From Amoebophrya sp. A120 (taxonomy: Eukaryota; Protista; Dinoflagellata), in NCBI GenBank assembly GCA_905178155.1, contig CAJINV010000002.1:10148146-10212145 (forward strand): a stretch of DNA of 64,000 nt, read 5' to 3'. Below are positions 201 to 58,080 of the stretch, piece by piece; within the stretch, counting starts at the first letter, position 1, and each line of letters opens with the position of its first letter. The notes under the pieces were generated by a model, which saw only the letters and a list, made by a program, of their open reading frames with translations, made no database searches and had not been told where the DNA came from. The position numbers and the translations under genes were made by a program.

Positions 201-1957
201 GAATCCTCGCCATGTTCGCCGTGCAGGCCGGCGCGGCCAAGGTCTACGCGGTGGAGATGTTATCAAATGTAAAAATGTCTGGGTCTGGAAGAATGCAGCC
301 TGTCATGCTAAGTCTGCAACAAGCAAGAATCTGTGTTGCATGATTACCAAAAGTCGTCCAGTTTTGACCAAGTCGGGAAGGAGTTTCTCATGCAGGATAG
401 GCATGAGAGACATCGCACAGAATCTGTCATGCTAGGTCCTGCATTCCAGACCTCATGGGTCATGGAAAAGCTGCATGACAAACCGCTCACTCTTCCAGAC
501 CCAGACATTTTTACAATTGATAGATGTCGGATATCATCGAGATTGGAAAGGAGATAGTCGAGCTCAATTCAAGCAAAACCTATGAAGAGGGCGACTCGAG
601 GAACCAGTTTCAAGAAAGCGGGAATTATCGAATGCCGAGCGGTAGAAAAAGAAGGAGGAAGAAGGCGAAAAGCCAATACGACACAACATCATCACCCCTG
701 CACCACGATTATCGGTCGAAGATCGAGTTCTTCAAGTGCGATGCGCAGAAGCTACCGATCGATCGAAATTCCGTGGACATCATCATAAGCGAATGGATGG
801 GCTACCTGCTGCTGTACGAGAGCATGTGTGACGTGATTGTGAATTGCCGGGATCTGTACCTGAAGCCAGACGGCCTGATGTTTCCGGACCGGTGCTGCAT
901 CTACCTGGCCGGCTGCGACGACGCGAAAAAGTACCATGAGCAGGTCCAAAAGAAGTTCCCTTTGTCAGAAGCTTTGGAGAAAAATCAGCCAAGCCAAGCC
1001 AAGTTTATTTCTGACGACAAGAACAGTGCGAGACCGTTCACTGGACGAAAGGAAGGCGAAGTACATCAAGAATTTTCGAAGCTGCACCTTGAAGACCCCA
1101 CTCCCATCTCCTTTGCGCCTTTCACCTCCGAGCTGGTTTTCAAAAACGCGATCGTGGCGGAAGTGGAGCACCGGGAGCTGATTTCGACGCCCGCGCGAGT
1201 GTTCGACATCGATTTGCGGACGGTAACGGTGCCGGAGCTCGATTTCAAAACCGCCTTTGAACTGCAGGTCGTCGCTCCGACAAGCAGCAGCGAGCATGAC
1301 GAAAAGCACAAAACGCGCCACTTGCGCAGCTTTTGCGCCTGGTTCTCTTGCGGGTACAGCTGTTTGCCGAGGAAAATCGCAGAGGCAGAACCTTTCGCAG
1401 GGTCGAGTAGCAAAATAAAGGCGGGGAGCGGTAGAAAAGCGAAAAACGAAACGCGCGACATCATGCGCACGACGTCGGTTGTGGAGGAGGCGTTTTTGCA
1501 CGGCCCGATCTTCGACGACGAGGCTTTATTCGAAACGGATTTGGCCAACGTCGCGCTGCTCGGCGAGATCGAAACTGGTCTGGAGCAAGTGGAGGTGGAC
1601 CCACACGACGAAGCATCTAACAAACAGGATGCCGGGCCGGGTTCCGTTACTAGCAGGTCAACATCATCGTCCACCAAAGAGCCTCTCGTGCACCAGGAGA
1701 TACTTAACACATCGCCGCTCACACCGATGTCGCATTGGCGTCAGGTCTTGTTCTTCTTGGACCACGGACCCGCAAGGGCAAGCCTGGCCTTGCCGGAGAA
1801 GACCTTGATCAGGGGAAGTTTTTCTTTGCGGAAATTTTACGAGAACAACTACCGCGATCTGGTCATAGACATCGAGTATGAAGTTAGTGGCGTTGAGGTG
1901 GAGAAGTTAGAGGAGGATGTTGTTCGTAAGCGAAGTCAGCAGTTTTTTCTGCGATAA
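201..1957 (+). CDS. Type I protein arginine methyltransferase (PRMT1/3-like), 5' partial; exons ~201-260 and 528-1957
   Basis: Joined sequence ILAMFAVQAGAAKVYAVEMSDIIEIGKEIV; double-E loop VDIIISEWMGYLLLYESM; YLKPDGLMFPD; THW-like loop SHWRQ. Confidence 0.9.
261..522. mobile_element. Introner-like TIR element, family A (subfamily A1), 262 bp
   Basis: TIR TATCAAATGTAAAAATGTCTGGGTCTGGAAGA ... TCTTCCAGACCCAGACATTTTTACAATTGATA; direct repeat GATGT at 256-260 and 523-527; removal restores VEMSDI. Confidence 0.95.
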
Positions 1958-2269
1958 AATGTTTTAGCGACTGGCCGTGGTCAATTCGACTAAGGATGAT
2001 CGATTATGGTCTGAGCGTGTATGGCAATCAAGCTCCTGCTCGTCAAGATGCAGAAAGCGCATCCTGTGTATACGAATGAATCGGAAAACAAAGAGGAGGC
2101 CAAACAGCTCGACCTCTTCAACATGACATTCGGGAGGTCGTATGGCGATGCCGTTGTGTTCGTATCTCTGACCCGTTTGACCTTCGTGACTGTTTACCGA
2201 CGTCGGCGAATGCACTTCTCTGGCGCAATTCCATGCCAGTACGAGCATGCTCGGTCCACCTTTTCCAGA

Positions 2270-4440
2270 AAAGGCGCCGCCGTGGATTGCCTTGGCGTCG
2301 GTGGAAATTTGCCTGCGGGCGCTCTGATTGCCCTGGCCCGGCGGGCCGGGTGGCGGAGCGAAGCCCTTGCGCTTTGGGATCCCCAGGCCGTTGCCCCGGA
2401 GTAGGCTGGCGCAGTTTCAGCCTTGCGCGGTAGGAAGAGACGGAGGCGGGCGAGGTCTTGGAATCGCTGCAAAAAGCGGCCACCGATGGGAGAGCGACCG
2501 CCGAGAACGCGCCCCAAAAAGAAGGCGGCCGGGCGCGGCGGCCCCAGGCACAGGGGGCGCGGTGGCCTGCTGTGGTCGTCGCGCCTGCCCGCGCGCTTGC
2601 ACTCATAGGTCCCGGGCGCATGAAAAGCATGCGGCTCGTTGTGGAGTGTTTGTTCTGCAGCCGTATGGCCACGCACTTCGCCGGCCGGGCCGGAGTAGGC
2701 GCTTCGTCCGGCGCCGGGCCCTATGGGGGCAGCGCGGGAAGGACCGAAGACGGCGGGCAGCGCCCGGCCCTTTCCGGAAGAAGAGCTTACCGGGCCTGAA
2801 AGCGGTAGCGCAGAGTATTCCGATGAAATTCGGGACACTGGGCGCGCGTATTTTCTGCGTTTCTCCCCTGCGGAAGCCTGGGGATGTCGCCCGCAATGCC
2901 TCGGGCAGCCACCCGTGGAGCGAGCTCGCAGGGGGCGCTCCGGGTGGCCCCGGCAACGAACGGACCGGGGCCAAAGCTGGAGAAAAGCGACGACCGCACA
3001 CGCAGGGCCCGACCGAGAGGGGAAGCGTTGCCCGGCGGGGCCGGGGGAAGGCAGGGAGGTGGGCCAGGGAAGCGGCCCAGCGGGCGCGCGACATTGTATC
3101 CAATGACCATGCCCGCGCCCTGCCCAAGTGGCGACGGCAGCAAGGGAGGGGGCCCAGGGCCGGGCGGGCTGCGACATTGCTCGCGGGCCATAAAGCAGCA
3201 AGCGGTAGGCAGAACAAGGCGCCGGCCGGCCAGGCAGGCGCGCGCCGCGAGTGCTTCGCGCCGGCAGATGCCCGCTTCGCGCGCTGGTCCATCTCGTACA
3301 AATGCCGCTGGGGCCGCACCCTTGCGGACGGGGCGCGCCGTCTGGCCTTCTCCCCCAAGGCCGCCCGCCGGCGATTTCCCAGCCACCAATGGCAAGCGGC
3401 CAGCGCTTTGGTGTGTCCTTTTTTTCTCCGGGGTGCCCCGCACAGTGCTGGCACGCGATGGCAGCATGGAGCGCGATTGCTACAGAAAGAAGGGCGCTCG
3501 CGGATAATGGCGGGCGCCGATTGGAGGCGCGGGAAGGCGGCCAGCCCCGCGGGCTGCGCGTAGCAGAGTAAAAGCCCCGGACGAGGTTCCCGCTCCCGCC
3601 ACTGCGCCGGAAAGAGCCGGCGCGTATTATGGGGCCCGCCCGCGCTGGGCTTGCGCCTGGGCCGGCCCCTCGGGCCGCGCGCGTGCCCCCCCGAAGCAAG
3701 GCCCGCGGGCGGAGTACTTCGCCCGCGTAACCTTCGCCCTCATCGGGACAGCCTTCGTCCTCATCCGGTCCGCCCGATGTTCCTCCAGCAATCCGAGATC
3801 CTGCTCGTGTTTCTTTGCTTTAGCCGACCAGAGGGACTTCTTCGATCGCGGCGAAAAGATCGCGATGAGCGCGAACCGCTGCGGCTAGGATACTTACGTC
3901 GACGCGGCGGCGTGGAAAAGAAGATGGTAGGGGAGATGGTGGAGGCGGCGGCGGCGGGGAAGGTGAACGGAAAAGAAAAGGCCGAGGCACTGCGCTGCGG
4001 CGCCGCAATCCACTTGGTCTGCTCGGCTCGCTTCCTCGCCGGCCGAGAAATGGCCCGCCTTTGAAAAGGTTGGCAAAATTGGTAAAGGGCGGACCCGGAG
4101 GCGGGGGAGGCCCCAGCTCTTCCGGGGGTTGCCCGCGCCCATTTCTTGCACGCAGCAGGCGGCCGCCCGCTCGGGCGCCGCCGCCCGATCCGCGCCCGCC
4201 CGGATATTCCCCTCCGGGGCGCCATGCCGCCGGCCGGAGGGGGGTTGGTGCTCTGCTCATGTGCCGCAGTGCGCCGCGACTACCATGGTGTGGGTGCCCG
4301 TGTGGTGCGCGGCTTAGCGCTTTACTTTGCTCTTTCCACATTGAGTGATCTGCGTGTCTCTCTGTTTGCAGGGTGGCGCGGCGGTTCAGCTTATCTGCGC
4401 GCAACATATAGTGGACGGGCGCCTCTTCCTGGGGGGCAAG
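2270..4440. other. GC-rich, homopolymer-rich island of unknown nature
   Basis: Abrupt shift to very high GC; overlapping Arg/Gly/Pro/Ala ORFs in most frames with no recognisable domain; boundaries approximate. Confidence 0.5.
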
Positions 4441-6562: not shown

Positions 6563-7530
6563 ATGGGCGCCCAGTGCTGCTGCGAGGGTCGAGGAAACAA
6601 ATCTTTCCGCAGCGATTCTTTCTTTTCCGCCGCTCCGACCGCTGGCGCGGAGTCTGCGCACCAGGGTTTTAACGCGCAGCAAACCATAGTGCCAGCGAAT
6701 GAGGCAAGAACGCAGAAAAACCAGGACCGAAAACAAGCGGTTCTCGCCGAGCAACAGGTGGTCGCTCCGCGCGGCTTGAAACACCAGGCGACCCTCCCGG
6801 TCACGGGGAAAAAGGGAAGCAAGGGAACGTCGTCTTTCAGAGTAGACAAAGCAACGACGTCCGCGCAGACACCGAGCCCGAACGCCTCCATGTGGCCGCA
6901 ACAATACGAGTCGGGAAGGGCGACTGCGCCAGTTTCCACGATGTCTTCGCAGAACTTCATCACTCAGAAAGGAGGAAAGATCAGTAGCATGATGACCGCC
7001 GGCGTCGACGTTCCTAACCGCAGAGATTTCGGCGAGACACAGTTTATGGTTGCCGACATGGCGATGCACGAGCCGGAATTGGCTAAGCAATGGGGCGTGG
7101 CCGGGGAACAGACGATAAGGTTTATGCACCCCTCGATGTACACCACGATGGGGGCAACGAAACGAAACTTCCTATCAACTGTAAAAATGTCTGGGCCTGG
7201 AAGATTCTGACACTTGTCATGCACGTTTTGCATGAGCCATGATGTCTGTGATGCGTACCCTAGCAATACAGATTTTTTGAGGGCTTTTTGATGCGTATTC
7301 CGCATGACAAATGCCTCCTCAGCGTAGCAAAAATTGCTTTTCCTTTCCTTTGGTACTCATGCAATACAAATTTTTTTGGAATCCAAATGCAGCATGACAA
7401 GTTGCAATCTTCCAGACCCAGACACTTTTACATTTGATACTTCCCGGGCGAGGACAACGCTAGGCTTCCGGCCGGAGAGTCCCGAGGGCAAGTAGAACTC
7501 GATAATTTTGCTGGCGGACAGAAACAGTAG
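6563..7530 (+). CDS. Hypothetical protein with probable N-myristoylation/palmitoylation start; exons 6563-7172 and 7445-7530
   Basis: Starts MGAQCCC; after removing the element the frame continues KRNFPGEDNARLPAGESRGQVELDNFAGGQKQ*. Confidence 0.7.
7173..7439. mobile_element. Introner-like TIR element, family A, 267 bp
   Basis: TATCAACTGTAAAAATGTCTGGGCCTGGAAGA ... TCTTCCAGACCCAGACACTTTTACATTTGATA; direct repeat CTTCC at 7168-7172 and 7440-7444; interior similar to 43219-43478. Confidence 0.93.
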
Positions 7531-8015
7531 ATGAGTGAAATTGTGAACAGATAAGTTCTTCTTGTCGCGCAACGCCCTTTCATCTTTCTACTTTATCTTC
7601 TTCTTCGGCAGTTTGAGAACGAAAGACTCGACAAGCAGAGTTCTCTATATTCATATGCTCTTTCTTGGGGTTCACCATGGGACGAGCAGCGATAGTGTTC
7701 TGATCTTCACAAGCAACAAGCACTTCTCACTTGGGCAAGGCTTTAGAGAGATTCCAAAGTAGAGATGGGAGTGATGAAAGATGCGGGTGCAACAATTGAA
7801 TCTGAATGGGTGATAGTCCGACGATTCTGTACGGTCTTTTTGCGTTGTTATGCGATAAAAGACGTGTCTCGTACTACCCGTTTTTACTAGCAAGTGTTGC
7901 AACGGTCCCGCAGCCTTGTTTCTGCTTAGAGGGTATAGTGGCACTTCAACTCCACCGTAAGTAACTCGGTGCAAAAGAAGGCCTTTCCTTGTCGAACAAA
8001 AAAGCAGAAGAAAAA

Positions 8016-9383
8016 ATGACTCACATCGTCAATGGCACCCGGTTTCCCCTGTGGGAGGTTCCGGGGCTGTGGGACCCAAGCGAGGACCAGGTGCCGCGGA
8101 AGAAGTTTTTCTCCCCTTTCGACGGGCAGTGCGCGGTCACATACAAGATCGACCCAGCTGAGGTGGACGCAGAGTTGCGACGGATCGAACTGCTGAAGCA
8201 GAAGGAAAAGAGCGCCGCTGTGGCTACCTCCGAGAAGAAAAACAAGGAGTTTCTGAAGTTGCAGAGGGTCGAAGCGGAAAAGCAGGCGAAACGCGACGCG
8301 AGCTCGTCGCTCCTGGCTTCCGCGGTTGGGGCGGCTAATACCGGTGGAGCAGAGGGAGGAGATGGTGAGCACGATGAAAACAAGATGGATCTTTCAGGTG
8401 CGACACCATCTGCTACTGCGGGTTTGCTTTCCGAGAGCGGGAATAGCAAGCCTATGAAAACCGCAGGAGCATCATCTTCATCATCCAAAGCAGGCACAGC
8501 GACAAAGATGAACAAAATGAAATCCGCCTCTACTTCCGAAAAAGTCCTCGACAAGAACCCTGCATCGCCATCAACGGTAGCCATGAAAGCCGCGAAAAAG
8601 CGGAAGCTAGAGAATCAAGCGATTACCGCTGGGAGGAAAAGTGACTCGAAGATGCCCGCGGCCACATTGCTGCCGTTCGTACCCGAGCAGCAGGGGCCGA
8701 TGATTGCAGACGCGGGGACAGCATCAAAGAAGAAGAACTCTTCCTCTACGTCGGCGGCACTGGCATCGCCGATGATCATGTCAAATCCGGACGAAAATGA
8801 AAATGATCCCGAACATGTTCTTGAGAACGACGATCTTGCAATGCAGAGCCCGGTGCTTAGCAAAGAAAAACCTGGTACTGTGGACAAGCATCCACTGAAA
8901 TTGAAGATGCGAACGAAGAACACGTCCATGATGAACGGTTTCGCCAACGCGGAGCCGCAGTCGCCCAGCGCCGTGAAGATTAACCCGAACGTGAATCTGC
9001 TGAAGAACAAGGCGCAGTTTGTCAAGCGGCGCGACCCCTGGGCGGAGAAGCGGTTTTGCGTGCCCACGGCGTGCTTCAAGCGGATGCTGAAAAACTCCAT
9101 TCTGAAGGAGACGAAAAACACCAAACTGTACAAGCTGAATTTGGAGGCCGTTCTGATGCTGCAGGAGGCGGGAGAGAGGTTTCTAACCGGTGTGATGGAG
9201 GACTGCAACGTGTGCGCGAAACACGGAAAGCGGAAGACGGTCATGTCCCGGGACCTCATGCTCACCATGCGGATTCGCGGACAGTTTGGTTGGGCCGCCA
9301 ACAAAGACGTGAATCGCACCTACGGGAAGGATCAAGGTACTTATACACATACTAAGATCTTCAGATCCTACTTTTCGGAGTAG
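8016..9383 (+). CDS. Divergent histone H3-fold protein with long N-terminal extension (CenH3 candidate)
   Basis: C-terminal CFKRMLKNS...AVLMLQEAGERFLTGVMEDCNVCAKHGKRKTVMSRDLMLTMRIRG aligns with H3 PFQRLVREI...[45 protein letters not shown]. Confidence 0.8.
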   Translation: MTHIVNGTRFPLWEVPGLWDPSEDQVPRKKFFSPFDGQCAVTYKIDPAEVDAELRRIELLKQKEKSAAVATSEKKNKEFLKLQRVEAEKQAKRDASSSLLASAVGAANTGGAEGGDGEHDENKMDLSGATPSATAGLLSESGNSKPMKTAGASSSSSKAGTATKMNKMKSASTSEKVLDKNPASPSTVAMKAAKKRKLENQAITAGRKSDSKMPAATLLPFVPEQQGPMIADAGTASKKKNSSSTSAALASPMIMSNPDENENDPEHVLENDDLAMQSPVLSKEKPGTVDKHPLKLKMRTKNTSMMNGFANAEPQSPSAVKINPNVNLLKNKAQFVKRRDPWAEKRFCVPTACFKRMLKNSILKETKNTKLYKLNLEAVLMLQEAGERFLTGVMEDCNVCAKHGKRKTVMSRDLMLTMRIRGQFGWAANKDVNRTYGKDQGTYTHTKIFRSYFSE

Positions 9384-13496: not shown

Positions 13497-14227
13497 CGAG
13501 TCGCTTTGTAGCCCTACTTGTACTTTCTACTTCTGGTCACAGCGACCTGCGGGACGAGATAGAAATGCTGAGCAGACTCACTGCATGTTGCGTCGATTCG
13601 CGCTCCTTGAGCTGCTTTGGCTGTGCTGAAGAAACATGTACATGGATATTTTCCGGCCCTCGGGCGTTTTCGCTTCGTACTGCGAAAAGATTTTTGCTGA
13701 GTGGCGTTTACAAATGTTACAACGTATATCATGGATGTGTGAGGACCTAGGATGAAACATTTGCTTCTGGATGTAGGAGTCCTGCCTCTGATCCTCGATC
13801 ATACCCCTGTCCGTACTAATGAACATCAGACCGGAAGAACCGCCGTAGCATATCGCATGGATGACAATCATGCTGAAGATGGAAACGAAAGTTTGCTTAG
13901 TGTCGCGTACTTGTGTTCTTTCTTCACATGGCAAATATAGAGAAAGCCGCGTAAAAAGTGGATTCTGCTTCTCACGGTCAAAGCGCAATGCAAAGGCTCT
14001 ACGTACAAGTATACACTCTTGGCACAGGCTGACTAGGCGTCATTTCCAACTACGATGGAAGACTACGAGTTTTTCGATCCGATTATGAATTCGGAAAAAA
14101 CCAAGATTGACGGCTACTTACTTAGTTTGATTTGTTGAAGACCGAAGTTCAGAATTAGAGACACATTTTCCGAACAAAAACTGAACTACATCCACTCTGA
14201 AACTTGAAATCGACACTTGAGCTCTCA

Positions 14228-35400: not shown

Positions 35401-35940
35401 GGCACCGAGACGACACAACTAGCGGAACAACAAGTGAGAAACCTGTTCCAGACCACTTCCTCCTCTGCAGAAAGCAGCCGTGAAATAAAACCGCAGCAAT
35501 CGAAATTTTTCGCCCGAAACGTGTCTTCCCAGATTGTTCAGACCGAAATCGAACGGATAGACGAGCTGCTGGAGCTCGAACCGGATTGCTACTTGGCCGT
35601 TCTGGCGAAGGCAAGGCTGTTAGAGGCTCTGTGGGAGGAGAAGAACTGTAAAAGCAGTGCGCAACTGCAGGCGGAACCGGCGACTAGCGAAAAAGGGCGT
35701 CAAAGCGGACCTCCTAATATATCGACCGAAGACGTGGCAAGCCTGTATAGAAAACTCGCTTCTGAGTTGGATCCAATGCGCAGGGGCTACTATTTGGACC
35801 AGATCAAGCGGGTTGAAAGCAGCTTTGGAAGTAGAAGTGTTGACAAGAGCGAACATCAGACAATGAGAACAGCGACAGAAGAACGGTTTCAACGCATCGC
35901 TGCGTTGTTAAAAACGGAATCCTCAGGTGCACCTTCATAG
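32474..35940 (+). CDS. RABGGTA: Rab geranylgeranyltransferase alpha subunit, interrupted by a 1.57-kb insertion
   Basis: N-terminal HGRKK; prenyltransferase alpha repeats HPEFGTLWNIRR, KCYCLWTHRRW, LDARNFHAWNYRQ, ENFSNYSAWYLR, FTEPNDQSIWFYH; C-terminal LDPMRRGYYLD. Confidence 0.9.
32680..34251. mobile_element. Non-autonomous TIR element, 1572 bp, TA target duplication (Tc1/mariner-like geometry)
   Basis: TA|CTCCAATAACCGGAATAAGCGTCCCAGTTCGAAATAA ... TTATTTCGAACTGGGACGCTTAATCCGGTATATCGAG|TA; GC-rich core; no recognisable transposase ORF. Confidence 0.8.
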
Positions 35941-43200: not shown

Positions 43201-44027
43201 AGGCGCTGCGGTTCAACCTATGGATTGCAAAAATGTCTGGGTCTGGAAGAGTCGGGACTTGTCATGCACATTTTGCATGACCCGTGAGGTCTGTGATGCT
43301 GGTGCTAGCATCACAGATTTTTTGAGAGCTTCTTGATGCTAATTACGCATGAGAAATTCCCTCTTCGCGTGCCAAGAACTGACTCCTCTTGCTGCTCATG
43401 CAACACAGATATTTTGAGAATCCGCAGACAGCATTACAAGCTGCATTCTTCCATACCCAGACATTTTTACATTTGATACAACCAGGACCTGTCCAATTGG
43501 GACGTTTCCTCGGTGGAAACGATGAAGGCCATGTTCATGGCCGCGGAGAAGTTCGACCAGAAAGTCAGCTCCTACAGCTGGGACGTGAGCTATCAAAAGT
43601 AAAAATGTCTGGGTCTGGGAACTGGTGATGCTGGGTAGCGTCTCAGGATGAGGCTACAAATGCTGGCTCAGCATGACAAGTTTCTGAGCTCCTAGGCGTT
43701 GCCTATTGTGCATGACACACTGCGCTTCTGCATCACAGAAAAGCGGAGCTTTTGGGTAACGTGCATGACAGATTTAAGAGTCATGCCAGACAAACATGAA
43801 TTCTTCCAGACCCAGACATTTTTACATTTGATATGAGCCGGGTGCAAACGATGCAGTACATGTTCAACGACGCGTACGCCTTCCACGACGGGGACCTGCT
43901 GGAGCAGTGGGAGCCCCACTTTCTGCGCCTCTTCGGAAACTGCACCCAGAAGGCGATCGGGGACGTCTTCCACGGCTCCAAGATCTACTGGACCCGCATT
44001 CAGTTTCTCACCGTCGGCCACGCCTGA
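40247..44027 (+). CDS. Protein with C-terminal DUF285/BspA-type surface repeats, interrupted by four TIR elements
   Basis: Reconstructed repeats FNCDISGWDTSSAVDMHCMF, FNRPLNDWDVSKVVDMAGMF, FNQDLSNWDVSSVETMKAMF, WDVSRVQTMQYMF. Confidence 0.85.
42269..42479. mobile_element. Introner-like TIR element, family E, 211 bp
   Basis: TATCGCAAGAAAAAGGTGTTACAGTTACACA ... TGTGTAACTGTATCACTTTTTTCTCGTGATA; imperfect direct repeat AATCC (42264-42268) / AGTCC (42480-42484); frame restored to KEFESRAEL. Confidence 0.9.
42821..43152. mobile_element. Introner-like TIR element, family B, 332 bp
   Basis: TATCAAAAGGAAAAATCCCCCCTCCCCATA ... TATGGGGAGGGGGGATTTTTCTTCTTGATA; imperfect direct repeat ACGAT (42816-42820) / ACGAC (43153-43157); frame restored to PLNDWDVS. 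Confidence 0.92.
43219..43478. mobile_element. Introner-like TIR element, family A, 260 bp
   Basis: TATGGATTGCAAAAATGTCTGGGTCTGGAAGA ... ACCCAGACATTTTTACATTTGATA; direct repeat CAACC at 43214-43218 and 43479-43483; restores FNQDLSNW. Confidence 0.95.
43591..43833. mobile_element. Introner-like TIR element, family A, 243 bp
   Basis: TATCAAAAGTAAAAATGTCTGGGTCTGG ... CCAGACCCAGACATTTTTACATTTGATA; direct repeat TGAGC at 43586-43590 and 43834-43838; restores WDVSRVQTM. Confidence 0.95.
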
Positions 44028-44936: not shown

Positions 44937-47900
44937 ATGGGGAATGCGGCGGCGCAAGCGAACCGCACCGCCAGCGCGGCGGCCAAGAAAATGCTGGCGC
45001 CGGAGCTGGTCCAGGCGCTCGAGGAGAATGCCAACGATTTAAACTACTGGAACGGTCTGTGGCAGGGTGTGGAGGACCGGCGGTCGGAATTCTTCGATCT
45101 CCAGCTGCTCGAAGAGGGGGTCATGAAACTCCTGGAACACAAGTACCACTCGCCTGAGCTGGAGTGGCGCGTGACGGGCGTGGCCATCGCGCGTACCTTT
45201 TTCCCGTACGAGCTGGCCCGAAAGAAGCTGATCCGGGCGGATTTTGTCTCCGCCGTGCTGATTCTGACCATGGAAACCACCAGCGACACGGTCAGCCAGC
45301 AGAAGGTCGACGAGCTGCAGATTTTCGCGGCAAAGCTGTTCTGCGAGATGGCGGACTACCAGGACTTCGAGCCCGACCTGTGCAGCGGGTCGGTGCTGAA
45401 CTTTCTCTGCATCGTGTTGAACCAGCTGGAGGAGGCGGAGCAGCTGGTCACGCTCACCTTCAAGAAGCTCTCCCGCCGCACCGAGAACCTGATCATCCTG
45501 ATGGAGGGCTCGGTGGGCGACATTCTGGAGTCCTACTTCAAATTGTCGTTTGCGCAACTGGAAAAGGAAACCGAGGCGGACGTGGCCGCGGACCAGTCCA
45601 AGGCCTTCGCCAACTGCGCCTTCACGCTCGGACAGTTTTTGAAGTTCGGTTTCGAAATGCAACTCGACTACGACATCGTGCTTTCCCTGATGCAGGCCGC
45701 CGTGTACCACGACGCCGGCCGGCAGGGCGAGCTGGACACCATGTTGGCCTACTGGGTCTCCGAAAAGCTGATGGCGGAGTGTGTGCGGCTGTTCTACTGG
45801 CACTGCCGCAATTCCACGCGGGGCATCGTGGACATCATCGAGGAGGCCGCGCCAGACCGACAATTGGGCACGGGGATACAAATACTCGTATTTGATTTAT
45901 ACTTTTTTATCGATTTGCATTTGATTTCATCTGAAGAACTGCTTCTTGAGCGGGCACCTTTTCCCGCACAGAAGTGCCACGCGGTCTTGTGCCTCCGGAG
46001 TTTCGTCCGCACGGTACTTGTTACAGTTGTGATTACAGTGTGGCTGTGCGTTCTAGCTCAGACATGCATTTACGTACAGAGGTGTTTCCTCTGCTACTCT
46101 TCTTCGTGCACTTTTTCGGGATGTTATCATTGTCACAGGTGTCCTACTGGCGACAGCACTGCATTCCGTCGTTCGAGATGCTGCGGGACTTCGACAAGCT
46201 TCCTGCGGCCCAGAAGCAGCAGCTCATCAAGAAAGAGGATGGGGAATCAGAACAGGCGCAGCGCAAAGAGGTGGTGTGCAACATGAACATCCTGTTTTGG
46301 ATCCTGATCCCCGACTCGCAGCTCCGCTGGTTGATGAAGCGAAACTCGCTGGAGCGCCAGGACTTGATATTTGAGCTGCTTTACATCGAACCACCTCCCA
46401 TGGTTAAACTTGAGATCAAAGACAACCCGTCCGCATCGTCGAGTGCGAGTGCGGATACAGGGGGCGGTGGGGAACCAACGACTGCCATAGCAGCAGCGGC
46501 CACGGTATGCTGTTTTGCAGTAGGTGGGTGCCATGCATCAACGGGTTTTTGTAAAAATTAGGCAAGAAATGACGAAAAAGCCTGCGTTGATTTGTGCACC
46601 AGCTTGTTGACTTAATCACAGTGGAGACAGAACGACAGTGAAGTATCAAAACTTGAAAACAGCGCGTGGTTACCGTCGTAGACCACCTCGCTCTTTTTAA
46701 CACGAGTCTGTGCGACCGCACGCTTCGAACCGCCAAATTTGTCCTCGACAGTTCGGAATGCGAGCCGCTGGCACGCAGGCTGGCGGAGCGGCTGCTGCAG
46801 ATGTTTGTCTATTTAGTCGACAAGCACGCAGAGTTGTCCGCCGTCGTGAAGCCAAAATTAGAATCCGGGACTACTGGTGCCTCCTCCAGCAGTAGAGGAG
46901 GGCAGCAGCAACAGGACCCGAGCGCTCTCGGCGAAGGGGCGGCGGCAGCTGGGTCGCAGCAGCAACCGGGCGGTGCAGCAGCCTCGGCGCGCTCCGCCTC
47001 TGCGGCATCTTCCCGAGCCAGTGGTTCGGCAAGAGATCCACTTCAACCCGGCGGACCACTGGCGTCAAAGGAGAAGAAGGGGCCGAAGAGAATCAACTTG
47101 GACAAGTACGCGCGGTTTCCGATCACTGTCTGCGACCAGCTGTTGGAGTCCATTTCGTTGGCCGCCTTCCGGCGCGACGTGTGCGCGTCATTCGCACAGC
47201 AAGATTTGTTCGCGAAGCTGTGTTACTTCCAGGATGTGATCATCGAAGCGAATTTTAATCCTGGCGCGCTGAGGGCGAAGACTGGCCTCGGGTCCATCGG
47301 CCGCTCGCTGCTCGCGAGCACGCGGCTGATGACGCTGCTCGCCAGCCACCCGGGGCACCGGCTGCCTTGGTGTGTGGCCTCGGAGTCGGTGGGGGGCGAA
47401 AACAATCACTACCCGCCCCCGGAAGACTTTGACCGCACCGTGGACAAGCTGGCGGACTATCGAACGCGGCTGAAGCAGCTCGCGAGCCAGGACCAGGCGA
47501 CCGACAGCGCCGGGGGTGGTGGGAGTACTAGTAGCAAGCCCGCGAAGGCCCGTCAGCTCACGCCGGCGCAGGTCCGGGAGGAAGCTTTTGGGAACAATTT
47601 GGACACGATCCTGACCTTGACCCGCTCGGCGATCCTCCAGAAGGACACGCTTTTCGGTGCGTTCACGGGTGAGATCATCGAGAAATTCCTCGGCATCCTG
47701 CACTGGTGGCGAGAAAACTCCAGTCTCCGCTACGCGGAGGAAAAGGAGCTGATCGCGACGGGAGGCGAGCAGAGCAACGAGGACGGCACCACCGGGCTGA
47801 ACGTGTACGACGTGGACCACGTTTTGGCGGACTTCTTCGGCAAACGCAATCTGATGGCCGCGGAAGATCCCACCGAGGCGGACGATATGCTGGAAAAGAT

Positions 47901-50328
47901 GCAGCGCGTCTCCGTGCAGACGCTGCAAAATCGGTTTATCGATGGCAAGCACGTCCCCGCGCCCACCGTGCAGGACAGCTTCCGGTTCACGAGCGTGTTC
48001 GAATCGCTCTTGATTCTGCAACTGCTCTCCCGGCTGGTGTTGGAGCCGAGGTGGAAGCGCATCTTTCTCTTCGAGCCGCGGTACCACGCCATCATACCCA
48101 ACAGCCTGCACGGCACGAATTTCGTGCGGTTGCTCCTCTGCGCTGTCGCCACGGCCACGTGGCCCGAGGCCCGCGAGGCTGCGGCGACGCTCGCGAACCT
48201 GTGCTGGATGGGCGACATGCGGTGCGAGCGCCTGTTCTGCTGGCTGAAGTTCGACTCTCCCACCAACGTCGGCGTGGACAGTAGCGGGGTGTTGAATCCA
48301 CTCACCATTGGCCAGCCGCGGCCACTGGAGCTCGGCCGGGGCATGTACCGGCGGTCGTGGGGCACGGAGTTCGTTGAGGGCTCGGCGATCATATATGCAT
48401 TGCAAAAATGTCTGGGTCTGGAAACTTCTCATGCTAAAAGTGAATGGGAGACGCACTGCAATACGCAGCTATGCATGACAAATTTTTTGGCTCCCATGTC
48501 TTACGTATTCCGCATGGCAAACTGCGCTTTTGCATGACAGGTAAGAGGGCCCCCTCTTCGTGCCTATGCAACACAGATTCTCGAGTCATGCCAGACAAAC
48601 ATGACAAACTTGCATTCTTCCAGACCCAGACATTTTTGCATTTGATATCATACTGCACCCCACCACGGTGTCGCCCACGAAAATTCCCGCGGCCCTAACG
48701 TCGGCCAGCCCCGGGTCTACCTTTACGAACTCAAACGGCAGCTTTGGAACGCTCCTCCAGGCGAACCTGAAAACGGCGCACCTGGCCAACCGGCACTGGA
48801 CCCTGCACTGCTGGTTCTACTGGGACCCGGTGGACATGCTGCGCGACGCCGGCCCGCCGCAGGGTGCGGACGACGGTCCGGAGGAAGCGGGTGGTGCAGC
48901 CACAACGGCGCAGGGAGGTAGTAATCCTGGTGGCGCAACTACTACAACCACTGCAGGCAATTATCTTCTGACCATGGTGCTGCTCCAAACGCACCCGAAG
49001 CAACACCAGACGCTGATAAAATTTGCGATCGCGAAAGAATCCACCGGGTTGCAAACGTCGAGCAGCTTCTTTGGGTTCGGGTCCTCCCGCGCTGGCAACC
49101 AGCAGCCCGAGCAGCAGTACCAGCTGAAAATCGTTCTGAAAGACGTCCGCGGGGGCGAGCAAGTGGTCGATGTGCAGCCGAAATTGACGCAAGGGTGGCA
49201 CCGATTTGCGCTGGTGTCCTCTATATGGATTGCAAAAGTGTCTGGGTCTGGAAGATTGCAACTTGTCATGCTAAATCCGAATCATGCAAAAATGAAAATC
49301 TGTGTTGCATGGGTGCCAAAAGCTGTCCACTTTCGACCAAGTTGGGAGGGAGTTTCCCATGCAGGATAGGCATGATAGAGACCCCACAGACTCTGTCATG
49401 CTAGGTCCCGCATTCCAGACCTCAAGGGTCATGGAAAACCTGCATGTCAAGATTACACTCTTCCAGACCCAGACATATTTGCAATCCATACTCTACCCCC
49501 GACGCGTACGCGAACGCGTACAACGGGTGCACGATCTACATCGACGATTGGACGCAAAAATTGTCGCCGCAGACGTTTCTGCGCAACGACTTTTATCTGC
49601 TGGGGAACGACACCGCGGGACAGGAGCCGTTTGGCGGACTGGCCGATTTCCGGATCTACGCGCGCACCCTGAAGGAAGCGGAGTTGGAACTTCTGCTGCA
49701 TCCGCCGCTGTTCGGAAGTAAAACCGAGAAGTCCATCGCGGTCGACAGCCGAGGGAAGCAACCGCAGCCGGAGCTGGATCCACCGAAGGGCGTGCCGACC
49801 GATGTGCCTGCGGAGAACTACTTTCCCGACCAGATTGTGCGGATGTTGCGGGACTGCGGCAGCGTGAAAATTCTCGCCAGCCGGCTGAACGTCGCGGACA
49901 CTGCGGCCGAATGCTTACGGGTGTTGTATCAAATGCAAAAATGTCTGGGTCTGGAAGAATGGGCGACTTGTCATGCAGCTTTTCCATGAGCCATGAGGTC
50001 TGTAATGCAGGACCTAGCATGACATATTCTGTGCGATCTCTCTCATGCCTATCCTGCATGAGAAACTCCCTCCCGACTTGGTCAAAACTGGACGACTTTT
50101 GGTAATCATTCAACACAGACTTTTGCATGCTTCAGATTTAGCATGACAGGTTGCATTCTTCCAGACCCAGACATTTTTCCGTTTGATATGTTGGGCACGC
50201 TCGCGACGTTGCAAGAAGCGCGGAGCGAGATCTTCGGTATCTGTGGACCGAAAATCCTCGAGCTCAGCGAGTCCCCCCTGCCCATGATAAAACGCCAAGC
50301 TGCTCGGGTTCTTCACAATTTGAGATGA
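44937..50328 (+). CDS. Large protein: probable N-myristoylation, helical (ARM-like) region, C-terminal concanavalin A/LamG-like domain
   Basis: Starts MGNAAA; GT-AG introns 45888-46138 and 46505-46662 in phase 0; three TIR elements; LamG-like motifs WTLHCWF, WHRFALV, TIYIDD, LLGN, FGGLADFRIYARTLKEAEL. Confidence 0.75.
48394..48647. mobile_element. Introner-like TIR element, family A (A2, inverted relative to 24923-25174), 254 bp
   Basis: TATGCATTGCAAAAATGTCTGGGTCTGGAA ... TTCCAGACCCAGACATTTTTGCATTTGATA; direct repeat TCATA at 48389-48393 and 48648-48652; restores SAIILHPTTVSPT. Confidence 0.95.
49224..49490. mobile_element. Introner-like TIR element, family A (A1, same orientation as 261-522), 267 bp
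   Basis: TATGGATTGCAAAAGTGTCTGGGTCTGGAAGA ... TCTTCCAGACCCAGACATATTTGCAATCCATA; direct repeat CTCTA at 49219-49223 and 49491-49495; restores LVSSTPDAY. Confidence 0.95.
49927..50188. mobile_element. Introner-like TIR element, family A (A1, inverted relative to 261-522), 262 bp
   Basis: TATCAAATGCAAAAATGTCTGGGTCTGGAAGA ... CCAGACCCAGACATTTTTCCGTTTGATA; direct repeat TGTTG at 49922-49926 and 50189-50193; restores LRVLGTLATL. Confidence 0.95.
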
Positions 50329-51606
50329 TCATGATTGTAAATGATCACGTCGTGCGCGGAAACCGATGCTCCTTTCTGCCATCCCTTAGTTAGTATGTTT
50401 TCTTTTCCGCATGAAACGCTGCGCGCATGGGCATGATATTTTTCACTTCACACTTTCACAGCAAGAATTTAGATATTTATACAAAAATACGAATCATTGG
50501 ATCAAGCAGATCAAGACTAGGTGTTTCCATTCGCTCAACGCTTGAATACTTCAAACAAAAATCCAGATATACTTCGCTAGATCAGAAAGTCTTCTATTGG
50601 TATTGCCTTGCTTGATCGAAATAAAATAACACTCACTCACAGAAATGGAAGTAAAAAGCACAGAAAAATGGCTTCGATAAACTTTGGATGCACCATCGAG
50701 ACTCCGTGTAATTAACATTTGGCGCAACTAACAAGTTCCAACTGCAAAACTTGTGCGGATAAGAATGAAAATTCAGATCTTCAGCCGGCGATCCTTCACA
50801 ATCGGCTTATTGCGGGTCCCAGCATACGACGGATTCTTGTTCTTTTCCAATGTCTGACGACTCCGATCATTCAAGGTGTAGATTCTCAACGTCGCTGGGA
50901 TCTACTTCCTGGAAAGAACAAGATTGAATTTAGTTTTAGTGGAAATCGGAATACTAGAAGCTAAAATAAACCCCTATACTGTGATGTTGACGCCAGGCAC
51001 CAAGAGATGCAGAGACATCAAGATTCCTCGCAAACATGTACGATGATTTAAGGTGGACCTGTATCCTCAAATGAAACTCATTGTCATGCTCCTCTAGAGG
51101 CAAATTGCGGAAAACGAAAAGCCACGACCGCGACCGATTGCGCCCCGGACCTAGTTGTTGCGCCTGCTCTGCCCGACGCGGAGAGATCAACATCCAGACG
51201 AGGAGAGCAAAAAAAGCGACAAGGATAATGTGTGTGGCTACGGGACCGAAAGCGAATCTGAGCTTTGTTTAGCACCAGGCGATCGACCTCAAAAACAACG
51301 AAGCAAGTCGGCGAAAGATATTCAATCGTCAGCAGTAGAGTACTAGGAAGCAAGTTTTCATTCTCAACAGCCGGCGCAATTCTCGAAATATCTTCGCCAA
51401 GCTTGTCCGCCGACTTCCGTCGTCCAAGCAGTAGCAGCAGAAGTGCAGTTCTTGCGGTTCGACAAATTGATCCCGCGCTACTGCGAGCAAGCTAAACTTG
51501 AGTACTTGCGACGTGTCTCTCACCAGTGTAACAAGTAGTCACCCGCCTAGTAGACGAAGAACGCTCCTCCTAGTAGCCCCCCGCGACGACGACGACCAAG
51601 TCCAAG

Positions 51607-54545
51607 ATGTCTCCGCCCCTCGCTCCCCCCCACAACATCCACCTGTTCGAGTCGATATGCATTGCAAAAGCATCGTACTCGTATAAATGCATTACAAATT
51701 TCCTCAGCATGAGAAATATAATTTGTGATGCAGATTTGCCTTGGAAACAAGATTTGTATTGCAAGACTTGCATTTGTACGAGTACGATACTTTCGCACAG
51801 GATAGTCGAGCTACAAGGTCGACTACGACGATGTGGATGTGAAAATCACAAGTGTGATATCCTAAGGAAAAACATCCCCACCCCAAAGTCAAGATGGGGA
51901 TTTTGCAACACAAACCTGGAAGTTTTGGGAGCCACGCATGACAAATTGCAGGCTGTATTGTAGTGCAGTTTAGCAAGGGAAGTCGCATTACAAATCCAGC
52001 TGCTTTATGCAGTTTACAGCATTACAAGTCCGAAACACGATTGGAAATGCCTATCATGGTGATGCGCATTACAAATGCTCTTGTGCTTGCAGATCTGCAT
52101 GACAAGAACTCATAGGTGGGGATGTCTTTACACAGGATATGTGAACGACAAGACGATCACGTTCACGCTCGAGGGCTGCGACACCAGCACGGCCAACGCG
52201 CTGCGCAGGATACTGATGGCGGAAATCTACACCATGGCAATAGATCTGGTCACCATCTACGAAAACAATTCGGTCCTGTTCGACGAATTCATAGCGCACC
52301 GGCTCGGCCTGATCCCGCTCGAGTCCAACGGGATCGGCGACATCCTCTCCGACCACGGCGAGGAGCGAAAACGGATCACACAAAAAATACACAACAGCAT
52401 GAATCTGAGTATTCAAATGTTAAATTGATTCAGACCTTTGTCCTTCATTCGATTACGTTTATGTCGTTGCTTTGCATTAATCCAAGTACCATGGAATGGT
52501 CGTGTTCCGGCAATTATGCACTTTCTGACATGTCATGGTTAACGCCTGCGTCTTTACAACCATCACTTCAAAACACGACAATGAGCCGCGCACCTGAAAC
52601 ATAAAGATGAAAATATTAAAAACAGCTGCAGAACAGAAAGCCTTTGAGAGCGCGCGTAACGATCTCGGGATTACTTATGCGGTTGCATCCATCGATGACC
52701 CAAGCAGGGGCGGTTGTGACTGCAGCGGTGGGTGCCCAAGGTGTGAAGTGAAGTTTGAGATCGACGTGGAGAATTTTTCGGGGCACCCGATGGACGTCAC
52801 GCACTTCGACCTGAAACTGGTGCACAATCCTGCAGAGGACGAGACAAGCCTCAGACCGTATAGAGAAGACATTTAACTGTTCGCGTTCAACCTCAGACCG
52901 TTTTGGAGATATGTTCACCTGTTCCCTAACACAGTAAATGAGATTTGTTTGAAGTGTTCTTTGCATCTTTTTTCGGCATTACGAACAACCGTCAAGGAGT
53001 GTGGAAAGAGACCTGATGCTTATTTACAGAAAAAATTGATTTCAAAACAGCCAGCGGGCATTCCAAGTCCTTCCAATGCCGCAAAGGGATCCCCTCTACA
53101 GTGAAGAAGATGACAGAAAAAGAAACGGTAAGTCGTACAATTTTTTTGCACCTACCACTTCATGTGCAATGACAAAGCAGCGGTTTTTTTGATAGATGAG
53201 TGTTACGCCCAGCTTCAACACAAAGCTCCTTGAATTCCCTATCTTACCAAAAACTACAGGCATCAAAATCGTGAAGCTCCAACACGGGCAGAAGTTGAAG
53301 CTGGAAGCCACGGCCATCAAGAATAACGCCAAATTCCACGCCAAGCACAATCCAACAGGGACAGTGTGTATGAAGCAGGACGCCGACGTCAGAATAAATG
53401 AGAACACAAAGGTATAGAGCTTTGTTTCATTTTTTCACGACGGCGCGCGATCCAAGTTCGTGATCGTGGAAAAATAAATGAATTAAGTACAGCGATGGAA
53501 TGAACCAACTAGATGCGCTGTAGAGTAAGTAGTTCGCCATAACCGTGAGGGCGAAGTGTGGGGTTGTATGAAGAGTTTCAAAAGCCGAAAATTCTCTCAC
53601 AGTTCCACCCTACTCTGGAGCAGAAGCGCGACATTGCAAAGTCCTGCCCGCAAGGGGTCTTCGACTTGGAAGATATGGGAAAATTGGTTGTCGCTAACGA
53701 GGACCGGTGTATCCACTGCGACAGTTGCACGGACTACTGTACAGAAAACAACATAAAAGGCTACGTCACGATTGACCACCACCCCAGGAGGTTCCATTTC
53801 GAGGTCGAATCCACGGGCGCGAAGCATCCCGCTGCCATAGTCAAAGCAGGTACTTAGTGTGTTTTTTAGAAGAAAATACTATCCACGACGAAGATCTAGA
53901 TCATTTCGATTTTTTCTTCTGCAAGAACTTTTATTCGTTCTCGTCGTAGAAAGCGGTCTAATTGATATAAGTAGTAATTTGCAAGAGGAAGAACAATCCG
54001 ACTCAAACCTCCACAGGCCTGCGCATCTGGAAGGACAAGCTTTTCCACTTCAAGAGGGACATCAAGCGCCTTCATTCAGACATTGCGGATCTTGGTACCG
54101 AGGGTATGCCATTAGGCTTCGCCATTATGGACCAGAGTGCGCAGGGCGGATCGGCACGAGGCGACGAAAATATGTCCTCTCAAGGAATGGAATTCACTTC
54201 GATGGGCACAGCATCGCAGGGCACCGGCGCTCCAATAAACGTCTCTCAGGCTCCCTCCGTCGTCGAGAGCAGCGCGCACAGGCAGAGGGTTCGCCCACGA
54301 TTTGGACCGCCGGGGAGCGCTGGCATGGAGAGCGAGTATTTTGATTTGATTTTTTAATTAATATGAAAATTTATTAACCTTCGTGCATTTTCTCAATACC
54401 AATACTTAGACTTACAAGACACCACATGTCGTTTTCATTCGATGAAAGAACATATGCAGAATACGAAAAAAAAATCGAATTGACTAACAGCGCGGGCTCC
54501 CAGGCTATGGACATCGACGACGACGTCGACGACGACGAGATTTAA
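51607..54545 (+). CDS. RPB3: RNA polymerase II subunit RPB3; two TIR elements plus several GT-AG introns
   Basis: FTLEGCDTSTANALRRILMAEIYTMAIDLV, NNSVLFDEFIAHRLGLIPL, Zn loop CDCSGGCPRC, IVKLQHGQKL, HAKHNP, FHFEVESTGA; some internal junctions and the last exon inferred. Confidence 0.9.
51656..51804. mobile_element. Introner-like TIR element, family F, 149 bp
   Basis: TATGCATTGCAAAAGCATCGTACTCGTATAAATGCA ... TGCATTTGTACGAGTACGATACTTTCGCACAGGATA; direct repeat GTCGA at 51651-51655 and 51805-51809; restores LFESSYKVDY. Confidence 0.92.
51858..52139. mobile_element. Introner-like TIR element, family C, 282 bp
   Basis: TATCCTAAGGAAAAACATCCCCACC ... GGTGGGGATGTCTTTACACAGGATA; direct repeat TGTGA at 51853-51857 and 52140-52144; restores KITSVNDKTITF. 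Confidence 0.95.
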
Positions 54546-56024
54546 AACTACAGCTTCCTCCAGGCTGCACCAGTTTTCTGAGCCAAGATCACAAGTTTTT
54601 TTCACCGACCGAAAGGGAAAGAGTGTAATAGAGCTGCAGCAAAGCCTGCTCGTGCTCTACTTCCGACGATGAAGATGCGCGACATCTTCTGCGCGACCCG
54701 ACGTTCTTTAATCCATCATCAAGATGCTCTATGTTCATCCGTTTATTGCTCCGCGTAGTTCATCACAAGACAAGATTTTTACGGAAAGTTCACAAAAACG
54801 ACTGTCCAGCTAGTAGGACAGAAAGCACAACAGATTTACTTATTAAGTTTCAGGTTTACATCATCGTCAGTATCGCAGGAGCTCAGGCGGAAAACAAAAA
54901 CAATTAGACGAAGGCGAAGCCGCGCATTTGTTAGTGAATACTATCGCTGCGGTCGTCTCATGGAATTTTTTAAAGTAAGTCGAGGGAACGGGACGCCGAG
55001 AGTAATACTCGCGGAATTTTCAGAAGCTGTGTGCTGCGGAATGCACAAACGGATTGATTTCCAGCCTGAATTATGATCAAAGTATACTATTTCTGCGCTG
55101 GAAGCAGAGCAGCTTTCGTTTCTCTTTCTTCACGCTGCGGTGACGAGCGAACTGAGGTTCGAGGTTTTCTTTTTGAATAGCCGACGACAAGTTCTTTGCT
55201 GATGATTCCACAACTTTTGCCAGTTTTCAGCCGAAGCCGTACCATTGGACCTCGAAGGAGAAGATGAAAACGAAAAGAAAATCAGGGAAGAAAAAGAAAG
55301 AACAATCTAAGTAGAACCTACGGCATTGTCAGCTTGGTGGCCAGGGGCCGCGGCCCACATTCTTCGACCCGGCCAGGAGTTCCCCTGCTTCTACAGGAAA
55401 AAAGGAAAAGTTCAAGTTGTGAAACCTTAAAGAAAATGGCTTGTTCGGCCGCAATCTCCATTCTATCTTTCAGGGAAAGAGTTCGGAAGATTCAGATCAA
55501 CGAATGATATTGTAGTTCCCGAATGCAAGCCGTGATCATGGATCGCAAAATGTAAGCGAAAATGGCGCTACAAGAATCAGAAGTGGTGATCAGTACATCT
55601 GTTGCCCCGCATTCAACCATTTTGGTGGAAGGGCAGTTTCTTCTGTGCCGAATGTTGCTCACCTTTGCGTATGCCTTTCAAACATACAACAGCAGTCGAG
55701 TAAATAAGATTTCAACTCTGTAGCTTCGTCTTGTTCTACGATAGGCAGTTTGATTTTGTCGAAGACACACCAATTTTACCTCACCAACCTTTTCTCATAT
55801 CACCTTCTTTATTGGCTCATCATCAATAAAAGTTGTTGGTGCCCCAAGGACAAGGTGGTTCTTTGTATACTTCTTCACCATCTAACGAATAAGCGTCGCT
55901 TGACAACTACGACAAAGTAAGTAACCTGATTCATCAAGTAGTAACTCGATTTCATTTGTATATTGGTTTGGAGCGGTCCACGACCAGGAGCAGCAAAACG
56001 TCACTCGGCGGGAAAAACCAGAAA

Positions 56025-58080
56025 ATGTTGTTGGGTGAGCAGCAAACCGAAAGGGACGACGACATAGTTGTCACGGACAAGAAGTCGTTCGAAACTTCCA
56101 AGGAACAACCAGCTCCGCAAAAGAAGGTTTCGAAGGGCGTTCTTTCCGAGGCGTCCACCACCGCGAGCGCCGACGACGGCTTGGAAGATCCGGAACCCTT
56201 CACCTGGGTGGACTGGGTGTGCTGGTACGTGGTCAGCTGGGGATTTCTGCTGCGGTTCCAGAAGGGGTTCTTGAAGATCCGGATGCCGAACGGCGTCCTC
56301 CACACCTTCGGGGACCACCGCAGCGATTTGCAGTGCGAGTTGCAGGTGTTCCGCCCCCGGCTGTTCCGCCGGTTTTTGTTGGGGGAAAGCATCGGCATGG
56401 CGGAGTCCTACATGGACGGGGACTGGACGTGCGAGGATTTGACGTCCTTCGTGGCGCTGGTGCTCGAGCAGGACAAGGCGGGCGTCCTCGTCGGGCTGCC
56501 CTACGTGAAGGAGATCGAGATCAAGGTGCGCTCCCTGTACAACTACCTCTTCCGCGCGGGCTACCACTTCGAGTTCTCGCTTGCCAACGTGCAGCAGCAC
56601 TACGACATTGGGAATGACCTGTACGAGCGGATGCTGGACCCGTCCACCTTCAGCTACACCTGCGCACTGTACCGCAACCCCTTCGCGGACCAGCATTTTA
56701 TCGCCGCCTCGCAGTTCGGCAAGGACATGTCCGGGAAGAACGAATTAACCCACCAGGCCTACAAGTCCATTTCGCTGGACCAGGCGCAGCTGAACAAGAT
56801 CCATTTATTGATCAAGAAGGGCAACATATCCAGGAAAAAAACTGTGTAAGTGTAACTTTCTTTGAGGAACAGCATCACAAATTTGCTCCGAGTGTGATGG
56901 TGATGGCTTCGGTCCGCCTGACTCCGCGACCCGGTGGCCTGACCATCTGCGGAAAGGTGCCCTATGGGTTGCGTTTGTGGTTTCGGTCGGTTTAGCATCA
57001 CAAATTTGCTCTACATGACAGAGAAAACCTGTCATGCATGGTTTGTAAGGGAAAATACACATGAAAAGAGGACTTCATGGCTGTCTGGGATGACAGGCGT
57101 AACTCTGTTGCATCTTCTGCAACACAAATTTACACTTACACAGTTTTTTTCTTGCATACAACATCCAGAGGCACCACCGCGTGCTGGAGCTCGGGTGCGG
57201 GTTCGGCGGGTTCTCCTGCGAACTGGCCAAGCAGGTGGGCTGTCGCGTGGACTGCTACAACCTCTCGGTGGAGCAACTCGCACTCGCGCGCGCCCGCGCG
57301 AAGAAAGCGGGCGTGGAGCACCTGATCAACTACATGCACGACGACTACCGCGCCTGCGTGCACTACTACCCGACCAAGGAGGACGAGGTACTGCGGGACG
57401 GCGTCAAGTCGGAACTGTCGGACCGCCGCAAGACGGGGAGCGCGCGCAATCTGTGGAACCAGTACGACGTGATCGTGTCCATCGGTATGCTGGAGCACGT
57501 GGGGCACAACGACCTGGTGGTGTTCTTCGAGACCTGTGACCGCATGCTGAAGCCGGGCGGCACGGCGGTGGTCCACACCATCACGTCCAACGATTTCGGG
57601 TACGAGCACCACAAGGTGACCTACGGTTTCATCCAGAAGTACATCTTCCCGGGCGCCTGCATTCCGGCGGTCGGGGCCATCGTGGCGGCCGCCACCGGTC
57701 ATTCCAAGTTTGAGCTGCAACACTTCGAGAACATTGGCCAGCACTACGCGCCGACGCTGCGCCACTGGCGGGAGAATTTCTACCGCAACTTGGACGAGAT
57801 TATGGCACTGAAGGACGAGAACACGGGCAAGCCGAAGTACGACAGCAAGTTTATCCGCATGTGGGACTTCTACCTGTGCAACTGCGAGGCGGAGTTCATC
57901 ACGGGGCACTTCGGACTGGGCCAGTTCGTGTGGAAACGCCCCAGTTCGGAGTACACCGACAAGGCGGCGCGCGACCGCATCATCCCGGTGCTGCCCTCGC
58001 TGTCTGCGCTCCCGGATGACGAGGTTGACACCTACGGAAACGTCGTGGCATCACTGTCTGGTTCCAAGAAAACGGAGTAG
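56025..58080 (+). CDS. Cyclopropane-fatty-acyl-phospholipid synthase family methyltransferase; exons 56025-56826 and 57164-58080
   Basis: GESIGMAESYMDGDW, NVQQHYDIGNDLY, SYTCA, VLELGCGFGG, IVSIGMLEHVG, FIQKYIFPG, HYAPTLRHW, RMWDFYL. Confidence 0.92.
56827..57158. mobile_element. Introner-like TIR element, family G, 332 bp
   Basis: TATCCAGGAAAAAAACTGTGTAAGTGTAA ... TTACACTTACACAGTTTTTTTCTTGCATA; direct repeat CAACA at 56822-56826 and 57159-57163; restores KKGNIQRHHRVLELGCG. Confidence 0.95.

Follow-up and report, generated by a model that had tools for sequence, protein, structure and literature searches.

The window analyzed here is a stretch of 64,000 nucleotides of contig CAJINV010000002.1 from the dinoflagellate Amoebophrya sp. 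A120. It contains short elements that are non-autonomous DNA transposons with TAT…ATA ends and that act as introns (introners), and these elements share one internal motif, GCAWBACA, across different terminal inverted repeats (TIRs). An earlier sequence-only reading had proposed that the motif is a family-independent binding site. This prediction is supported by the conservation of the motif across TIR types, by its free central position (position 5) and by its fixed spacing. The window elements fit the published introner elements of A120, so that the elements are known, and the motif and its spacing rule are apparently undescribed. We consider it moderately probable that the motif is a subterminal site at which double-stranded DNA (dsDNA) would be bound by one shared mobilizing protein, either the DNA-binding domain of a transposase or a cofactor.

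Abundance, conservation and spacing of the motif

The window holds 88 matches to GCAWBACA, compared with 13.2 ± 3.7 in 100 dinucleotide shuffles (largest 21). Elements were called by a finder that is blind to the motif and uses TAT…ATA ends, a TIR and a 5-bp direct repeat, the target-site duplication (TSD). It returned 22 candidates in the window, of which 19 bear the motif. The other three (18871–20019, 35283–35749 and 53413–53755) have the weakest TIRs (9–10 of 16), no motif and no match to the element library, and were set aside. The 19 retained elements (149–332 bp, 4,928 bp in total) contain 77 of the 88 matches, three to six per element; a partial element at 1–200 contributes two more, and the rest of the window (∼58.9 kb) has nine, about the chance rate. 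With the 19 elements masked, element-library matches remain at 1–200 only. The six GT–AG introns with RNA support in the window (1,055 bp) contain no match. The sequence-only reading had described the motif as dense inside elements and sparse outside them, which these counts bear out, and the motif positions that it quoted are all correct (its approximate 51081 is 51082).

To these we added a wider sample of 136 loci from one assembly, for which the commonest TIR served as the search pattern, so that the sample is skewed toward one TIR family. The blind finder called 380 elements in these loci, 377 of them with at least one strict motif, and two in a shuffled control of 210 kb. The analyzed set comprises 391 elements of 109–450 bp, including the 19 of the window, in 71 families; they are repeated and lack coding capacity. 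Eight elements over 450 bp were set aside. Independence was defined in two ways. All 48 elements that share no local match of 40 bits carry the motif (145 matches in 8,368 bp), as do 57 of the 59 elements below 50% identity; the enrichment therefore outlives de-duplication of families, whose loss of enrichment the sequence-only reading had named as a refuting outcome. Outside called elements, the fetched loci show 1.4 motifs per kb, a background that may come from partial and uncalled elements.

Conservation was measured in the 26 families with at least four copies. The six core positions differ from the consensus in 1.6–6.8% of cells and the W position in 6.4%, compared with 16.2% at B (position 5), 14.0% in the other non-CpG interior and 7.7% in the TIRs. 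The core thus varies about four times less than the remaining interior, and it is the lower of the two in 26 of 26 families; equally fast decay of cores and surroundings, the other refuting outcome named by the sequence-only reading, is thus not seen. The wider consensus is about (T)GCAWBACARRT; an 8-bp motif had been proposed, and its presence is confirmed, but its width is about 12 bp with position 5 free.

The spacing of the motif is also constrained. In the 48 independent elements, 30 same-strand pairs lie 31–33 bp apart, compared with 5.2 expected (largest value 15 in 1,000 placements), and among the family consensuses 42 adjacent same-strand gaps measure 31–33 bp and eight measure 39 bp. 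The best same-strand spacing period is 10.5 bp. Outward-facing first sites fall at 36–37, 44–48 and 56–59 bp from the element end across TIR types (26 consensuses), and the outward sites are periodic at 10–11 bp (p = 0.016 in the 48 independent elements and p = 0.001 in two less independent sets). The terminal 22 bp resemble the motif only slightly more than shuffles do, with a mean motif-likeness of −4.6 compared with −5.1, which is inside the shuffle range.

These features bear directly on whether the motif could be a neutral relic, in which CA/TG-rich 8-mers would simply remain from common ancestry, from duplication inside the elements or from CpG decay. The interiors are indeed CpG-poor (observed/expected 0.73, compared with 1.06 for the window) and CA/TG-rich (1.45), and all of them join under loose single linkage. 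However, 19 representatives contain 60 matches compared with 2.2 in dinucleotide shuffles, the fourfold conservation surrounds a free internal position, and the spacing is fixed despite non-homologous interiors. The relic explanation is largely refuted and hardly credible. As a separate observation on cytosine chemistry, one fetched locus (L011) has an open reading frame (ORF) for a C-5 cytosine DNA methylase at 591–2090.

Element ends, removal from RNA and strand symmetry

Most termini consist of TAT, about seven variable nucleotides and an A run, and some families (for example TATGGCGTTCTCA and TATGACAGTGCAC) deviate from the A run. When terminus pairs were picked regardless of the TSD, the duplication was 5 bp in 103 of 116 pairs and 6 bp in none. 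No base preference beyond local composition was found in or around the 5-bp TSD, in the window or in the loci. The elements interrupt open reading frames and do so in either orientation. Within most families both orientations occur, and one family shows a ratio of 0:8. Deletion of the element together with one repeat leaves the plus-strand frame open at all 19 window sites, by a codon model that was trained on the window and is partly circular.

The RNA-like contigs, from four runs of one sample whose RNA status is the tool's guess, though the runs also join the six GT–AG introns, lack all six elements in 47200–57700. In each case exactly the element and five bases are missing, which leaves one copy of the duplication, and in all six GT..AG is absent from every equivalent cut. 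The DNA-like run X1 reads into elements, where its depth exceeds that of unique sequence by factors of hundreds to thousands, and the copy number of the elements is very high. The raw-read RNA runs X9 and X10 placed only four and two reads. In all six skipped elements, 15–19 of the first 20 nucleotides pair with the far end as a TIR hairpin. Mismatches between the TIR arms show no G–U excess (211 G–U compared with 229 A–C).

The TIRs themselves have further peculiarities. Positions 4–7 are often unlike between the two ends of one element, for example in 43219–43478, 48394–48647 and 51656–51804, and in 311 elements position 4 accounts for 106 non-wobble end mismatches and position 7 for 96. A few variants of the first ten TIR bases recur across families, as if ends swap as modules.

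Orientation could be assigned for 311 of the 391 elements, and the locus majority agrees in 262 of 275. In these 311 elements, 548 motifs are sense and 569 antisense, so there is no transcript strand bias. An RBFOX-type UGCAUG site was dismissed because this bias is absent and position 5 is free.

The sequence-only reading had left a choice between a dsDNA-binding factor and intramolecular RNA pairing. Mutual pairing of motifs, in RNA or single-stranded DNA, would fold the element. Folding of the element interiors is indeed stronger than that of shuffles (mean z −3.3), predicted structures join 66 of 126 motifs to another motif, and the variable letters match in six of 12 close inverted pairs. 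Yet over all opposite-strand motif pairs the variable letters match in 32 of 121, compared with 28% expected, and 14 families with motifs mostly on one strand have equally conserved cores (3.3% compared with 12.2%). The folding signal stays when the motifs are held fixed (z −2.7) and therefore stems from other inverted arms, not from the motif; the folding z is near 0 in one family whose six sites all share a strand. In three of the six exactly removed elements every strict motif lies on one strand, and a same-strand spacing of 31–33 bp is no pairing feature. Pairing between motifs is thus very improbable, and of the two options a dsDNA factor in transposition gives the best fit.

Copying, removal and the predicted protein

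The case for a mobilizing protein is based on spacing, strand symmetry and polymorphism. Protein units would occupy sites spaced by about three helical turns and phased to the element end, and once bound they would promote assembly and pairing of the ends. The target duplication would then result from a cut with a 5-bp stagger. Copies with a damaged core would be copied less often, so that the motif would persist as the TIRs and interiors split into many families. Removal from RNA may rely on the paired ends and the direct repeat rather than on the motif, a step we propose less firmly.

To separate copying from splicing, we compared changes private to one copy with changes that are shared. The private:shared ratio is 200:47 in the core, 1431:1138 in the other interior and 51:52 at position 5 (p about 1e-15 and 1e-8). 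The contrast is also seen in 15 families without the searched TIR, and it is absent from the TIRs (p = 0.24). In the copies that have the fewest private changes, the core is not protected (ratio 1.29, 95% CI 0.87–1.91). For this youngest bin, the model values are 0.49–0.57 under selection and 0.62–0.72 under copying, so the observed 1.29 is farther from selection.

Alternatively, the motif may mark the element for removal, in that a protein attached to the folded RNA, or to the DNA as it is transcribed, recruits machinery that excises the element and one repeat; such a protein might also mobilize the element. A strand-symmetric mark would be needed because removal is exact, orientation-independent and free of GT–AG in six of six elements. 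For A120, the portion of PMC7789003 available to us reports that U1 was not detected. Moderate host selection comes close to the observed polymorphism pattern, and private core changes are lowered in the older bins (0.52–0.69). Set against this are the unprotected youngest bin and the comparison of coding with unassigned copies: coding copies do not have fewer private core changes (0.023 compared with 0.019) and are no richer in motifs (2.01 compared with 2.20 per 100 bp), and 19 of them, if they are spliced, would be so with no or one strict motif. In addition, the TIR hairpin already supplies a symmetric mark in the six skipped elements. We regard removal marking as unlikely, and the evidence leans modestly to copying over splicing. 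The original wording, that the motif marks the segment for transposition or removal, accordingly holds best for transposition, on a modest balance, and a role in removal has a rather small chance of being right. Both functions could also be combined: a domesticated transposase, or a partner of one, might sit on the DNA at phased arrays and both copy the elements and mark them for non-spliceosomal removal. We think this improbable. If it were true, a dual-role protein would act on tens of thousands of elements, and exact, orientation-blind removal would restore the pre-insertion message.

The protein could instead be an ordinary host DNA-binding or chromatin protein (for example, ApiAP2-like), co-opted so that it aids copying or tolerance indirectly. 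The family independence of the motif suits such a factor, and TGCATGCA, which resembles the commonest motif variant, is reportedly linked with AP2 factors in apicomplexan papers. However, the motif occurs outside elements only at the chance rate given above, the fixed core of TGCATGCA is not found here, since its G at position 5 is free and ACA is fixed, and phasing to the element end is unexpected for a transcription factor site. A host factor of this kind is quite improbable.

Several observations weigh against a shared mobilizing protein. First, no transposase family matches were found in 121 scanned locus ORFs (of 144 with at least 230 aa; the 22 shortest were left out), and Farhat 2021 (PMC7789003), in the part consulted, saw no A120 transposase and read this as excluding general mobilization by transposase. 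Second, the toy model separates copying from splicing only weakly: a copying filter fits (0.62/0.16; observed 0.60/0.18), moderate host selection fits nearly as well (0.55/0.14), and neither reproduces the trend across age bins. Private core changes overall are still about 0.6 of background, and in just 17 of 22 families does the core have the higher single:shared ratio. Lastly, the 10.5-bp same-strand signal is weak without the 31–33 peak (Z 4.2, with another period better), the recurring 39-bp spacing is a non-integer number of turns, inward-facing sites show no periodicity in the independent sets (p 0.88 and 0.92), and the inverted-pair spacings of 15–16 and 46–48 bp are within the largest null value.

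Orphan termini number 21 of 329, none of them beside a recognizable transposase; no IS3-like DDE transposase was found in about 0.6 Mb of overlapping loci; and integrase signature patterns gave a single unconvincing match in the loci. The commonest TIR has no match in the viral and prokaryotic collections. Two long 'elements' (L042 3333–9529 and L052 6001–10208) were rejected as chance pairings of the ends of separate short elements. Among longer segments, L071 476–2934 spans 2.46 kb with family-A ends, a matching 5-bp TSD and a motif-free left end, and its 415-aa ORF has no Pfam match and no usable atlas match; a transposase was not recognized in this segment either. A 972-bp element (L044 6001–6972) adjoins RNA polymerase Rpb1 domains, and L040 6001–7031 (1,031 bp, 12 motifs) has the appearance of nested elements.

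Elements of the window and related systems

The window begins with the partial element, truncated at the window start (1–200), whose motifs lie at 18 (−) and 117 (+). The first complete introner (261–522, TSD GATGT) interrupts a PRMT-like gene and has motifs at 301 (−), 332 (−), 425 (−) and 473 (+). It is followed by introners at 7173–7439 (CTTCC; six motifs, −−++++) and 20197–20367 (TGGAA; motifs at 20229 (−), 20297 (+) and 20328 (+)). Further copies are found at 21010–21266 (GGCTG, three motifs), 22973–23195 (CTCGT/CCCGT, four), 24923–25174 (TGGAG, four), 27358–27668 (GCAGC, five) and 27725–28006 (TGACA, six), and the copy at 28098–28408 (TCCGC) has three strict motifs, all on the plus strand. 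Four introners break one gene, which has a DUF285 match at 42386–42961: 42269–42479 (AATCC/AGTCC, three motifs), 42821–43152 (ACGAT/ACGAC, four), 43219–43478 (CAACC, five) and 43591–43833 (TGAGC, four strict motifs, all plus).

The six elements skipped by the RNA-like contigs, by the element plus five bases in each case, complete the set. They lie at 48394–48647 (TCATA; three motifs, +++; 259 bases skipped), 49224–49490 (CTCTA; three motifs, −−−; 272), 49927–50188 (TGTTG; 267), 51656–51804 (GTCGA; motifs at 51689 (+), 51724 (−) and 51755 (−); 154) and 51858–52139 (TGTGA; six motifs, all plus; 287), and the last, at 56827–57158 (CAACA; motifs at 56872 (+), 56995 (+), 57030 (−) and 57119 (+); 337), splits a CMAS methyltransferase domain. 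The elements at 49224–49490 and 49927–50188 belong to one family and lie in opposite orientations in one transcript contig.

The window has other features as well. A GC-rich segment at 32674–34257 has 43-bp inverted arms 1.5 kb apart, which enclose a palindrome with 48-bp arms (33406–33546); it has neither TAT ends nor the motif, and its ORF at 32962–33909 has no Pfam match. The region 2200–4400 is GC-rich (64–69%) with overlapping ORFs on both strands, two of which were scanned and have no Pfam match. A 472-aa ORF at 7965–9380 has a long N-terminal part followed by a C-terminal histone fold (H2A/H2B/H3/H4 and CENP-T matches), and an 18-bp tandem repeat occupies 15816–15977 within the ORF 14201–16042.

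Subterminal repeats comparable to the motif are known from Ac/hAT, En/Spm, and the end arrays of Mu and Tn7. The window elements resemble these and other TIR transposons, including miniature inverted-repeat transposable elements (MITEs), in that multiple short repeats, in both orientations, lie internal to the TIRs and are more conserved than the rest of the interior. They differ in that one motif serves many TIR types, extends over the whole interior and follows a three-turn spacing, and in that the elements are also introns. The likeness to repeats bound by transposases rests on sequence, and binding here is only predicted. In one such case, that of the Emigrant MITE, Lemi1 proteins bind both the TIRs and the subterminal repeats, according to the part of PMC1636448 consulted.

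The closest relatives are the published A120 introners, which share with the window elements the organism, the TIR form, short direct repeats and non-canonical removal. The shared organism is borne out by a protein of the window that has 100% identity, over 98%, to one that its source names as A120. The consulted portion of Farhat 2021 (PMC7789003) gives TIRs that open with TAT and continue through seven variable bases to an A run, with short direct repeats of 3–5 nt; counted from TAT/ATA, the repeats here are strictly 5. For A120 it counts some 29,850 repeated introns, grouped into 1,954 families, reports no transposase and no U1, and leaves the spread and splicing of the introners unexplained. 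The introners of A25 have different ends. In Gozashti 2025 (PMC12130899), most of the 21 A120 rows examined (out of 58) are TIR DNA with the superfamily unassigned, family lengths in the dataset rows examined (149, 208, 252, 260, 278, 305 and 320 bp) are similar to those of the window elements, and a TIR-flanked, LTR-integrase-like family (family 38) is reported for A120. IS3EU/GingerRoot elements have TA..TA termini, comparable to TAT..ATA here, and integrase-like transposases, which recalls that A120 family (PMC10045372, PMC12130899, each as partly consulted); their TSD, however, is usually 6 bp (PMC10045372), a length seen in none of our terminus pairs. As far as they were available to us, the published accounts of A120 introners cover the ends; the internal motif, the spacing rule and the cross-family signal are described here instead. 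We found no description of the internal motif in the open-literature text consulted, which includes PMC12005148 and PMC11282704; figures (Farhat Fig. 3, 4c, S19 and S25 could show it), subscription papers and theses were outside this scope.

That different families share one conserved motif with helical spacing speaks for the introners being one system that depends on one trans-acting protein. The motif would provide a bait for finding the mobilizing protein and an improved detector of elements, and contrasts of the core with position 5, or of whole-turn with half-turn spacers, could separate copying from splicing. The motif thus offers a handle on how introners spread in this marine parasite.

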